From a virus (Duplodnaviria > Heunggongvirae > Uroviricota > Caudoviricetes), in IMG/VR virus record IMGVR_UViG_3300011226_000015, positions 1 to 4,132 of that record: a stretch of 4,132 bases of DNA; one strand, 5' to 3'. The notes beneath the pieces were generated by a model, which had not been told where the DNA came from, searched no databases, and saw only the letters and a list, made by a program, of their open reading frames with translations. The position numbers and the translations under genes were made by a program. Below are positions 1,771 through 4,132 of the stretch, one piece after another (positions within the stretch are counted from its first letter, which is position 1; the number at the start of each line of letters is the position of its first letter).

Positions 1771-3769
1771 TAATAACCTGCGCCTGCAGGTCATTCTTAA
1801 TGCGGTTGACAAACTCACCCGCCCATTCCGTNNNNNNNNNNNNNNNNNNNNNNNNNNNNNNNNNNNNNNNNGAGCAGTCTGGACAGCTTCCGAAAGCTGC
1901 AGGCAGAAAATCAGAAATTAGGCGACAGGCTGAACTATGCCCGCCAGCGTGCAAATTTGCTCAGTCAGGAACTGGGAGCGATGGGGCCGCCTTCGCAACG
2001 TCAGGTTGTCGCTCTGGGCCGTCAACGGCTGGCTGTTCAGCGCCTGGAAGAACGCCAGAAAAAGCTGCAGCAGCAGACGGCGCTTGTGCGTGCAGAACTT
2101 TATCGTGCTGGTATTTCAGCTAATGATGGCGCCAGTGCGACGGCCCGCATTACCCGTGAAACGATGCGTTATAACAGGCAGCTTTCTGAGCAGGAAGCGA
2201 GGTTACGACGTGTCGGGGAGCAACAGCGAAAAATGCACGCCGCCCGGGGAGCTTACGTCAGGCGTCTTGAGGTAAGGGATCGTATTGCAGGTGCTGGAGC
2301 CACCACCACGGCGGCAGGGCTGGCAATGGGCGCGCCAGTGATGGCGGCAGTAAAAAGCTATACCAGCATGGAAGATGCCATGAAAGGTGTGGCAAAGCAG
2401 GTCAATGGTCTGCGTGACGATAATGGCAACCGCACTGCACGTTTTTATGAAATGCAGGATGCCATCAAGGCTGCCAGCGAACAGTTGCCGATGGAAAACG
2501 GTGCTGTGGACTTCGCCGCACTGGTTGAAGGTGGTGCGCGCATGAACGTCGCAAACCCTGATGACAGCTGGGAAGACCAGAAACGTGACCTGCTGGCCTT
2601 CGCCAGTACGGCTGCGAAGGCGGCAACAGCCTTTGAGCTGCCAGCGGATGAACTGTCAGAAAGTCTGGGGAAAATCGCCCAGCTCTACAAAATCCCTACC
2701 CGCAATATTGAACAGCTCGGTGATGCGCTGAACTATCTGGATGATAACGCGATGTCGAAAGGGGCGGACATCATTGATGTGATGCAACGCCTGGGCGGTG
2801 TGGCTGACCGTCTGGATTATCGTAAAGCGGCGGCGCTGGGTTCCACCTTCCTGACACTGGGCGCTGCGCCAGAGGTTGCAGCCAGTGCAGCAAACGCGAT
2901 GGTGCGTGAATTGTCCATTGCCACCATGCAGAGCAAGAGTTTCTTTGAAGGGATGAATCTGCTGAAACTCAATCCTGAATTGATTGAAAAGCAGATGACG
3001 AAGGATGCGATGGGAACTATCCAGCGCGTGCTGGAGAAGGTAAACGCGCTGCCGCAGGACAAGCGCCTGTCTGCCATGACTATGTTGTTTGGTAAAGAGT
3101 TTGGCGATGACGCGGCGAAACTGGCAAACAACCTGCCGGAACTGCAGCGCCAGCTAAAACTGACAGCGGGCAATGATGCGCTCGGCTCCATGCAGAAAGA
3201 ATCCGACATTAACAAGGATTCACTTTCTGCGCAGTGGTTGCTGGTCAAAACCGGAGCGCAGAACACCTTCAGCAGCCTGGGCGAAACGCTGCGCCAGCCG
3301 CTGATGGATATTCTGTACACGGTGAAAAGTGTCACGGGAGCGTTGCGCCGCTGGGTGGAAGCTAACCCGGAACTGACAGGCACACTGATGAAAGCATCGG
3401 CTGTTGTCCTGGCTGGCTGGCGCACCACTGGCACTGCTGCGACGCGGGCTTGCTTCATCGGGCAACGCCGCAGGTTTACTTACTGCGCCGTTGTCGTCTT
3501 TGCGCCGCACGGCATCACTGACGGGAAATGTCCTGAAAACTGTAGCAGGTGCGCCGGTTGCACTTTTGCGGTCTGGATTATCCGGTTTACGTGCTGTTGC
3601 TGTGATGTTTATGAATCCTCTGGCGGTACTGCGCGGTGGACTGGCCGCCGCAGGCACGGTGCTGCGAGTACTGGCATCTGGTCCACTGGCGATGCTGCGC
3701 GTTGCCCTGTATGCCATATCTGGTCTGTTAGGTGCTCTGCTCAGTCCGATAGGTCTTGTGGTTACTGCA
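1763..3769 (+). CDS. Phage tail tape measure protein (P2 gpT-like), disrupted: N-gap at 1832-1871, +1 frameshift at 3409-3420, 3' end replaced by permease sequence at ~3770; likely pseudogene in this assembly
   Basis: ATG at 1763 overlaps the E' stop (ATGAGTGA) and encodes [23 protein letters not shown] before the gap. After the gap, frame 1 (from 1873) encodes a coiled-coil-rich N-terminal region then a tape-measure-like core (...[18 protein letters not shown]...[29 protein letters not shown]...). From about 3413 the sensible reading moves to frame 2 (...[70 protein letters not shown]...), a typical hydrophobic repeat region of myophage tape measures. The listed ORF 1957-3948 is this gene read through the frameshift into nonsense. 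Confidence 0.8.
1832..1871. other. Assembly gap (40 N) inside the tape measure gene
   Basis: Run of 40 N. The coding frame is phase 2 before the gap and phase 1 after it, so the N count is a placeholder rather than the true missing length. Confidence 0.95.
3409..3420 (+). repeat. (CTGG)3 tetranucleotide tandem repeat coinciding with a +1 frameshift in the tape measure gene
   Basis: CTGGCTGGCTGG read directly. Upstream the gene is in frame 1 (...[11 protein letters not shown]); downstream it is in frame 2 ([10 protein letters not shown]...). Removing one CTGG unit gives the continuous reading ...[16 protein letters not shown]... Confidence 0.7.
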
Positions 3770-4132
3770 CTGGCGGGCGTGGCGCTGGTGCTGATCCTGC
3801 TGACCTCGGTGCCGCTCGGCATCTGGGCAGCGCGGCACCGCAACCGCCTGCCGGATTACGTGGTGCGGCTGATCGCTTTTTTTGGCGTTTCGATGCCCAA
3901 CTTCTGGCTCGCCTTCCTGCTGGTGATGTGTTTCTCGGTCTGGCTTAAATGGCTCCCGGCGATGGGCTACGGCGGCGGGCAGCACATCATCCTGCCTGCC
4001 GTATCGATTGCCTTTATGTCACTGGCGATCAACGCGCGCCTGTTGCGCGCCAGTATGCTGGAGGTCGCCGGACAGCGGCACGTCATCTGGGCGCGGCTGC
4101 GCGGATTGAGTGAAAAGCAGACCGAGCGTCAG
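3770..4132 (+). CDS. nikB: ABC transporter permease, nickel/peptide (NikB/DppB) family; internal fragment lacking its N-terminus, 3' end continues beyond the window
   Basis: Frame-2 translation [121 protein letters not shown] is near-colinear with my recollection of E. coli NikB residues ~125-250, including the transmembrane region and EAA-loop segment of binding-protein-dependent permeases. The symbol is from memory and not verified by search. No start codon, RBS or N-terminal ~125 codons are present; the sequence is fused directly to tape measure coding sequence. Confidence 0.72.

Follow-up and report, generated by a model that had tools for sequence, protein, structure and literature searches.

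In phage P2 the tail genes are ordered FI-FII-E-E'-T-U-D. Annotated E. coli prophages of this type have a tape measure gene (TMP, gpT) of 1025 codons, with gpU, gpD, ogr and the attachment site after it. Decayed P2-like prophages of Enterobacteriaceae show truncated tail operons, internal frameshifting deletions and junctions at short identities, and known prophage remnants have a recognisable attachment-site neighbourhood. The permease NikB belongs to the NikABCDE nickel importer; when complete it has 314 codons and an N-terminal domain, and its gene lies between nikA and nikC. Hybrid sequences can also come from assembly. In chimeric contigs of de Bruijn graphs the join falls in a k-mer-sized identity between otherwise unrelated parents. 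Shared k-mers that link assembly graphs are a recognised source of chimeric contigs mixing genomes (PMC7299287).

Here we analyse a window of 4,132 nt, i.e. the whole stretch of DNA under study, in which a P2-like tail module runs into the interior of nikB (Table 1). The window has the gene order of the P2 operon; unlike that operon, it lacks the end of gpT with gpU, gpD and ogr, and carries a 152-nt deletion inside gpT. Its nikB fragment differs from an intact NikB in being a mosaic of two species' alleles with no nikA upstream. The truncated operon, the internal frameshifting deletion and the junctions at short identities are shared with decayed P2-like prophages. The window differs from them in its partner sequence, the interior of nikB, whose locus is prophage-free in all relatives examined and which changes its allele type 215 nt later. 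The k-mer-sized identities (21 and 32 nt) at the joins, the flanks that are 99-100% identical to intact parents, the N-gapped draft and the uniqueness of the junction are as in de Bruijn-graph chimeras, unlike the 152-nt skip at a 5-nt overlap. With moderate confidence, we read the junction between TMP and nikB as a chimeric join from draft assembly or scaffolding, and not as the structure of a living genome.

Table 1. Features of the window, with positions counted from its first nucleotide. Joints are numbered in 5' to 3' order.
Feature	Position	Strand	Remarks
Tail sheath gene (gpFI), 3' part	1..754	+	Pfam Phage_sheath_1 and Phage_sheath_1C; extends past the window start
Tail tube gene (gpFII), intact	764..1279	+	Pfam Phage_tube, E=8e-60
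Tail chaperone gene gpE	1334..1636	+	Pfam Phage_TAC_7; E. coli prophages have an annotated GpE family protein at the corresponding position
E' extension ORF	1648..1770	+	Part of the gpE/E' region, 1334..1770
Tape measure gene (TMP, gpT), 5' two-thirds	1763..3407	+	Pfam PhageMin_Tail; collinear with the 1025-codon E. coli TMP; contains the scaffold gap
Run of 40 N (scaffold gap)	1832..1871		Relatives have 80 nt there
Joint 1, deletion inside TMP	3403..3407	+	152 nt of TMP absent compared with every relative examined; 5-nt microhomology GTTGT
TMP segment, codons ~612-740 of 1025	3403..3789	+	100% identical to many E. coli prophages
Joint 2, TMP-nikB crossover	3769..3789	+	21-nt ACTGGCGGGCGTGGCGCTGGT common to P2-like TMP and UBA3516-type nikB
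nikB interior from codon 111, UBA3516/Phytobacter sp. AG2a-type allele	3790..4003	+	2 mismatches in 214 nt
Joint 3, nikB parent switch	4004..4035	+	32 nt identical in both Phytobacter nikB alleles
nikB interior, P. diazotrophicus/'Kluyvera sp. Nf5'-type allele	4036..4132	+	1 mismatch in 97 nt; extends past the window end

The tail module and the scaffold gap

The ORF list, the Pfam matches and nucleotide comparison identify positions 1-3789 as the tail module of a P2-like prophage, collinear with the annotated E. coli prophages. Identity to P2-like prophages of E. coli, Klebsiella and Salmonella over 1-3789 is 95-100% at the nucleotide level; the best E. coli prophages are 98.3-98.6% identical to the phage part of the window and the Klebsiella phages about 93%. 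For the sheath part the identity to the prophage of E. coli CT29 is 98.6%. The gpE protein is ubiquitous, and its look-up gave only ordinary prophages of E. coli and Salmonella. In the gpE/E' region the sequence itself shows a T TTT TTG heptamer at 1591-1597.

The TMP starts with the ATG at 1763, directly after the gpE/E' chaperone genes, and its product matches PF10145 with an E-value of 1e-18. It is not a full-length TMP, as it carries the 152-nt frameshifting deletion, its homology ends at codon ~740, and neither gpU nor gpD comes next. Apart from this, the ORFs and Pfam matches of the sheath, the tube, gpE and 1.6 kb of TMP show no further decay.

A look-up of the tube protein gave no identical record. 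Within the tube gene, a patch of 122 nt (1149-1270) matches a P2-like lineage that is otherwise only 86% identical. The shared identity at the borders of this patch is at most 10 nt and no assembler would join there; judged from these borders, the patch is therefore best described as natural phage mosaicism.

The reading frame shifts across the scaffold gap, where 40 N stand for 80 nt. The cause is trivial, because the gap is simply missized, and a run of N of the wrong size also marks the record as a scaffolded draft.

Three joints in the last 730 nt

In frame 2, the translation passes from TMP sequence into NikB sequence without a stop between 3302 and 4132. Megablast against 5426 complete E. 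coli genomes gives 100% TMP identity over 3403-3789, ending exactly at 3789, while the nikB homology begins at 3769. The preliminary description had reported a junction of these two genes with neither a stop codon nor a spacer, and had named both genes correctly; the junction is real in the sequence, with the two homologies meeting at 3769-3789 and not at 3764-3780, where the crossover had been placed. The short LAG motif that was noticed at the junction is also present, but it is part of an exact identity of 21 nt, the size of a k-mer. In a base-by-base alignment both parents read ACTGGCGGGCGTGGCGCTGGT in the same frame, as LAGVALV. There are no untemplated bases, and the crossover lies somewhere inside the 21 nt. 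After the 21-mer an intact TMP goes on with TGTCTGGAAATACTGG... and nikB with GCTGATCCTGCTG..., the latter being the same as in the window. Among the loci compared, the 21-mer is confined to eight of the 11 P2-like TMP loci and to the nikB of the UBA3516 lineage, where all six assemblies have it.

When each side is compared separately with related genomes, as had been proposed, the TMP of relatives continues for another ~285 codons and the right side is nikB. The loss from TMP is thus ~285 of the 1025 codons, more than the 150-250 expected earlier, and gpU, gpD and ogr are absent from the window as well. Conversely, nikB lacks fewer codons than the ~125 first given: the 21-mer begins at the last base of codon 103, and the 103 missing codons correspond to the PF19300 region at the N-terminus. 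What remains is NikB codons 104-224, which are 98% identical in amino acids to Phytobacter NikB and include the start of the BPD_transp_1 domain (PF00528, E=2e-19). The nikB side is only 343 nt long before the window ends, and it has TMP upstream of it in place of nikA.

With the nikB of E. coli, the nikB part has a nucleotide identity of 83% in every one of the 5426 genomes. Much closer is the MAG 'Enterobacteriaceae bacterium UBA3516' (Phytobacter lineage), with 99% identity over 3790-4034. The protein cluster of the UBA3516 NikB includes the NikB of Phytobacter sp. AG2a, P. ursingii, P. diazotrophicus and 'Kluyvera sp. Nf5'.

GC content rises gradually across the junction, from 0.52-0.59 to 0.64, and does not discriminate between the readings. 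By eye, the junction resembles Chi at only seven of eight bases. With each added base, the number of k-mers that 15.4 kb of a P2-like prophage has in common with 320 kb of enterobacterial nik loci drops about threefold, and extrapolation from these counts predicts about one shared 21-mer for each pair of a whole prophage and a 5-Mb genome. A shared 21-mer is thus nothing unusual, and it is the crossover there that calls for an explanation.

Two more discontinuities flank this junction. The preliminary description overlooked both of them, as well as the full extent of the 21-nt identity.

The first, Joint 1, sits 365 nt upstream, where the flanks have only GTTGT in common. Since 152 cannot be divided by three, the loss shifts the TMP frame from 1 to 2 at 3403-3407, and the frame of the hybrid is not the one a ribosome would follow from the TMP start; translation from that start is out of frame after Joint 1 and reaches a stop at 3946-3948. 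The junction had been called in-frame, and this is correct locally, in the LAGVALV frame, but not from the TMP start. The only start of the hybrid ORF itself is a TTG at 3404. A functional TMP-NikB fusion protein is very unlikely from the sequence, because of this single TTG start, the frameshift upstream and the missing N-terminal domain of the permease.

No E. coli prophage is more than 98.7% identical to the 608 nt upstream of Joint 1, and hundreds of them match the 387 nt downstream at 100%. We considered a lineage switch at Joint 1, which is only suggestive since the difference in private SNPs, five in 1127 nt upstream versus none in 387 nt downstream, is not significant. By its sequence, the 152-nt deletion resembles the product of illegitimate recombination during prophage decay, or else a merge of contig ends at the scaffolding stage. 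Some scaffolders permit merging on very short overlaps.

Joint 3 lies 215 nt downstream of the TMP-nikB junction and joins nikB alleles that differ by 17%. Before it, the window has 44 mismatches to P. diazotrophicus DSM 17806 (83% identity over 3790-4003); after it, 19 mismatches to UBA3516 (82% identity over 4036-4132). At the protein level, the first part carries an MCFSVWLKW variant and the last part the EVAG/HVIW variant of the 'Kluyvera sp. Nf5' NikB. This combination was seen in no NikB sequence inspected. The last 730 nt of the window thus fall into three segments, and every segment has an intact parent of its own that it matches at 99-100% identity.

We searched for the joints elsewhere by exact matching. 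A 54-mer across Joint 2 is absent from the GTDB genomes, one per species, and a 38-mer from the JGI metagenomes and IMG/VR. For Joint 3, a 47-mer is absent from the JGI metagenomes, and for Joint 1 a 33-mer was not found in IMG/VR; these two joints were searched in fewer collections than Joint 2. Joint 1 does not occur in any E. coli genome searched, as every matching E. coli prophage keeps the 152 nt. When the 238-aa hybrid was compared with 5.8 billion protein clusters, no match spanned both halves: the NikB matches and the TMP matches each cover about half of it, with a maximum coverage of 53%.

In the closest nikB lineage all six assemblies have an intact nikABCDER with conserved host genes upstream, and phage genes are not found within 10 kb upstream of nik. 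In the nik loci of 80 species, P2-like genes are absent up to a distance of 6 kb, and a search near nik in relatives found no tRNA or tmRNA gene that might serve as an attachment site.

Origin of the joints

Both causes named in the preliminary description, a deletion and a chimeric assembly join, are apt candidates. The choice had been left open, and the evidence now tilts to an artefact, because of the 21-nt identity, the TMP frameshift upstream and the switch of nikB parent downstream taken together. The crossover is within an exact identity of k-mer length, both parents exist intact elsewhere, and the independent assemblies that were searched do not have the junction. An assembly artefact is favoured for several reasons. 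Joints 2 and 3 coincide with exact matches of 21 and 32 nt and lie within a patchwork of three parents; the scaffold has a missized N gap and a third discontinuity 365 nt upstream; no joint recurs in any collection that was searched for it; and the closest nik operons are intact, without phage genes nearby.

A value of 21 is a common smallest k in assembly, at which identities of 21 and 32 nt would be single nodes, resolved at larger k. In an assembly chimera the reads would come from more than one related template: two nikB alleles of Phytobacter type and one or more P2-like prophages. The templates could belong to several organisms, or a single genome could supply them as paralogous copies if it had two P2-like prophages and two nik loci. 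At k of about 21 or less, the common 21-mer would be a single node of the k-mer graph, and the paths of TMP and nikB would meet there. Such a connection is readily available, given that about one shared 21-mer is expected per prophage-genome pair. The contig path would enter the shared node from TMP and leave it on nikB, and 215 nt later it would switch a second time, between the two nikB alleles at the shared 32-mer. The outcome would be a short scaffold with its last 730 nt patched from segments of about 390, 230 and 100 nt. If the window is the whole scaffold, the break in nikB after 343 nt and the start in the middle of the sheath gene would also fit a tangled graph. We infer that the assembler rather than the cell made the joins.

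Two observations speak against a pure k-mer chimera. Collapse of k-mers cannot produce the 152-nt deletion at a 5-nt microhomology, and if this deletion is real the prophage was decaying, which would favour a genuine deletion at the TMP-nikB junction too. Moreover, the nikB allele switch could be natural recombination, since the tube gene shows a natural mosaic patch, and this patch lowers our confidence in the artefact. On the sequences compared, the choice between assembler and cell is thus weighted rather than settled.

The best surviving alternative, which we regard as possible but doubtful, is such a genuine deletion. A defective P2-like prophage would have been located upstream of nik, in the same orientation, in a Phytobacter-like strain, and would have recombined with nikB at a chance identity of 21 nt. 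The event would have removed the TMP 3' end, gpU, gpD, ogr, attR, the host genes in between, nikA and 103 codons of nikB, and left a dead hybrid ORF in a strain without nickel import through Nik. The form of the junction is what short-homology recombination is expected to give, and the frameshifting deletion at the 5-nt microhomology already present in TMP is typical of illegitimate recombination. In P2-like prophages TMP is only ~3 kb from attR, so that a short reach out of the prophage suffices, and prophages are known to decay by deletions that run into adjacent host DNA. The host genes upstream of nik are not known to be essential, which also counts for a genuine deletion, and with a natural mosaic patch in the tube gene the nikB switch need not be an artefact.

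Against this, the relatives have no P2-like prophage within 6-10 kb of nik (80 species' loci and six assemblies) and no tRNA or tmRNA gene there, and the junction occurs in no other assembly or protein searched. Three independent rare events would be needed within 730 nt, and the remaining tail module shows no other decay. A further point against it is that 21-nt repeats separated by more than 13 kb very rarely give rise to a deletion. Even if the junction were real, expression or use of the hybrid ORF would be far less likely than the junction itself, because the TMP frame is already broken upstream.

The joins could also have been made in the tube, if the polymerase changed templates at the 5-, 21- and 32-nt identities while a mixed sample was amplified by PCR or multiple displacement, with faithful assembly afterwards. 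This would account for microhomologies of different lengths at all three joints, including the 5-nt one that is beyond k-mer collapse, and segments of ~100-390 nt are within the range of library fragments. Switching between homologous alleles is what PCR chimeras classically show. However, a single chimeric molecule rarely gets enough coverage to be assembled, and on the present data an in-tube chimera is indistinguishable from an artefact of the assembler. We consider it quite improbable.

Finally, the idea that there is no junction at all and that the sequence after 3770 is the native C-terminal domain of TMP, for which the hydrophobic character of both sides and the common peptide LAGVALV could be cited, is refuted: intact 1025-codon TMPs of relatives differ after the 21-mer, going on with ...LVVWKYWQPITAFLG and then gpU and gpD, whereas in the window 3790-4034 is 99% nucleotide-identical to a chromosomal nikB inside an intact nikABCDER and BPD_transp_1 is matched after the junction.

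Consequences of the two main readings

The main value of the finding is as a quality flag on a draft sequence. If the junction is an artefact, automated annotation would wrongly call the prophage truncated and the nickel transporter lost and would wrongly list a hybrid protein, and a bin holding this scaffold would mix DNA of different sources. Both readings are ordinary and neither raises a new question; as an artefact, the junction is not a biological feature.

The reading in which the junction is real in a Phytobacter-like strain, and the hybrid TMP-NikB frame was left by recombination at a chance 21-nt identity, is a tentative one. If it holds, the locus would be a further example of the well-known decay of prophages by deletion, with a local effect, the loss of Nik-dependent nickel uptake. 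It would then be a documented case of host gene loss through a chance microidentity between prophage and host.

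Deletion in the tape measure gene and allele switch in nikB

Two sequence changes flank the crossover from the P2-like tape measure gene (TMP, gpT) to the nikB fragment. By sequence comparison, the TMP lacks 152 nt that are present in all relatives. The joint carries a microhomology and moves the reading frame from 1 to 2, and it was found in no E. coli genome and no IMG/VR contig. Downstream of the crossover, the nikB fragment changes from an allele of the UBA3516/Phytobacter sp. AG2a type (99%) to one of the P. diazotrophicus/'Kluyvera sp. Nf5' type (99%), through a stretch that is the same in both alleles, which are otherwise about 17% different.

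Features of the window, in order of position
Feature	Position	Detail
Patch at the tube gene (gpFII) 3' end	1149-1270	122 nt
Heptamer close to the gpE end	1591-1597	T TTT TTG
E' ORF	1648-1770	-1 frame relative to gpE
Scaffold gap in TMP	1832-1871	40 N
Variable region, TMP 5' part	2072-2280	
TMP deletion joint	3403-3407	GTTGT, 5-nt microhomology
nikB allele switch	4004-4035	32 nt shared by both alleles

NikB entries and the nik neighbourhood

In the NikB cluster, several proteins from JGI metagenomes, namely P0125/P0126, P0129/P0131 and P0128, are split in two or read through to 347 aa, which suggests frameshift errors in the source assemblies. In L094, one assembly of the nik neighbourhood from the UBA3516 lineage, comparison with two others (L093 and L095) shows a PAAR-domain gene and unknown ORFs at positions 1-3000, in place of their tusA and dctPQM; this segment is a local rearrangement or an island upstream of yhhQ.

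Frame changes and a mosaic patch in the tail genes

The TMP starts at 1763, still within the E' ORF. gpE, the heptamer and the E' ORF are together arranged as in the P2 programmed frameshift yielding gpE+E'. At the scaffold gap the related prophages have 80 nt, and the TMP passes from frame 2 to 1 because only 40 N stand for them. The closest prophages are L084, L085, L087 and L100 before the gap, and L081, L083 and L092 after it. Further into the TMP, the variable region has 59-75% identity to most P2-like prophages; its counterpart in E. coli 65COLEC is nearly identical, with 5 mismatches.

Against the prophage of E. coli CT29, which is otherwise identical, the tube gene patch shows 19 mismatches; against IMG/VR P2-like contigs that are about 86% identical elsewhere, it shows just 3. 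Since the identity common to both sides at its borders is at most 10 nt, this patch is natural phage mosaicism.
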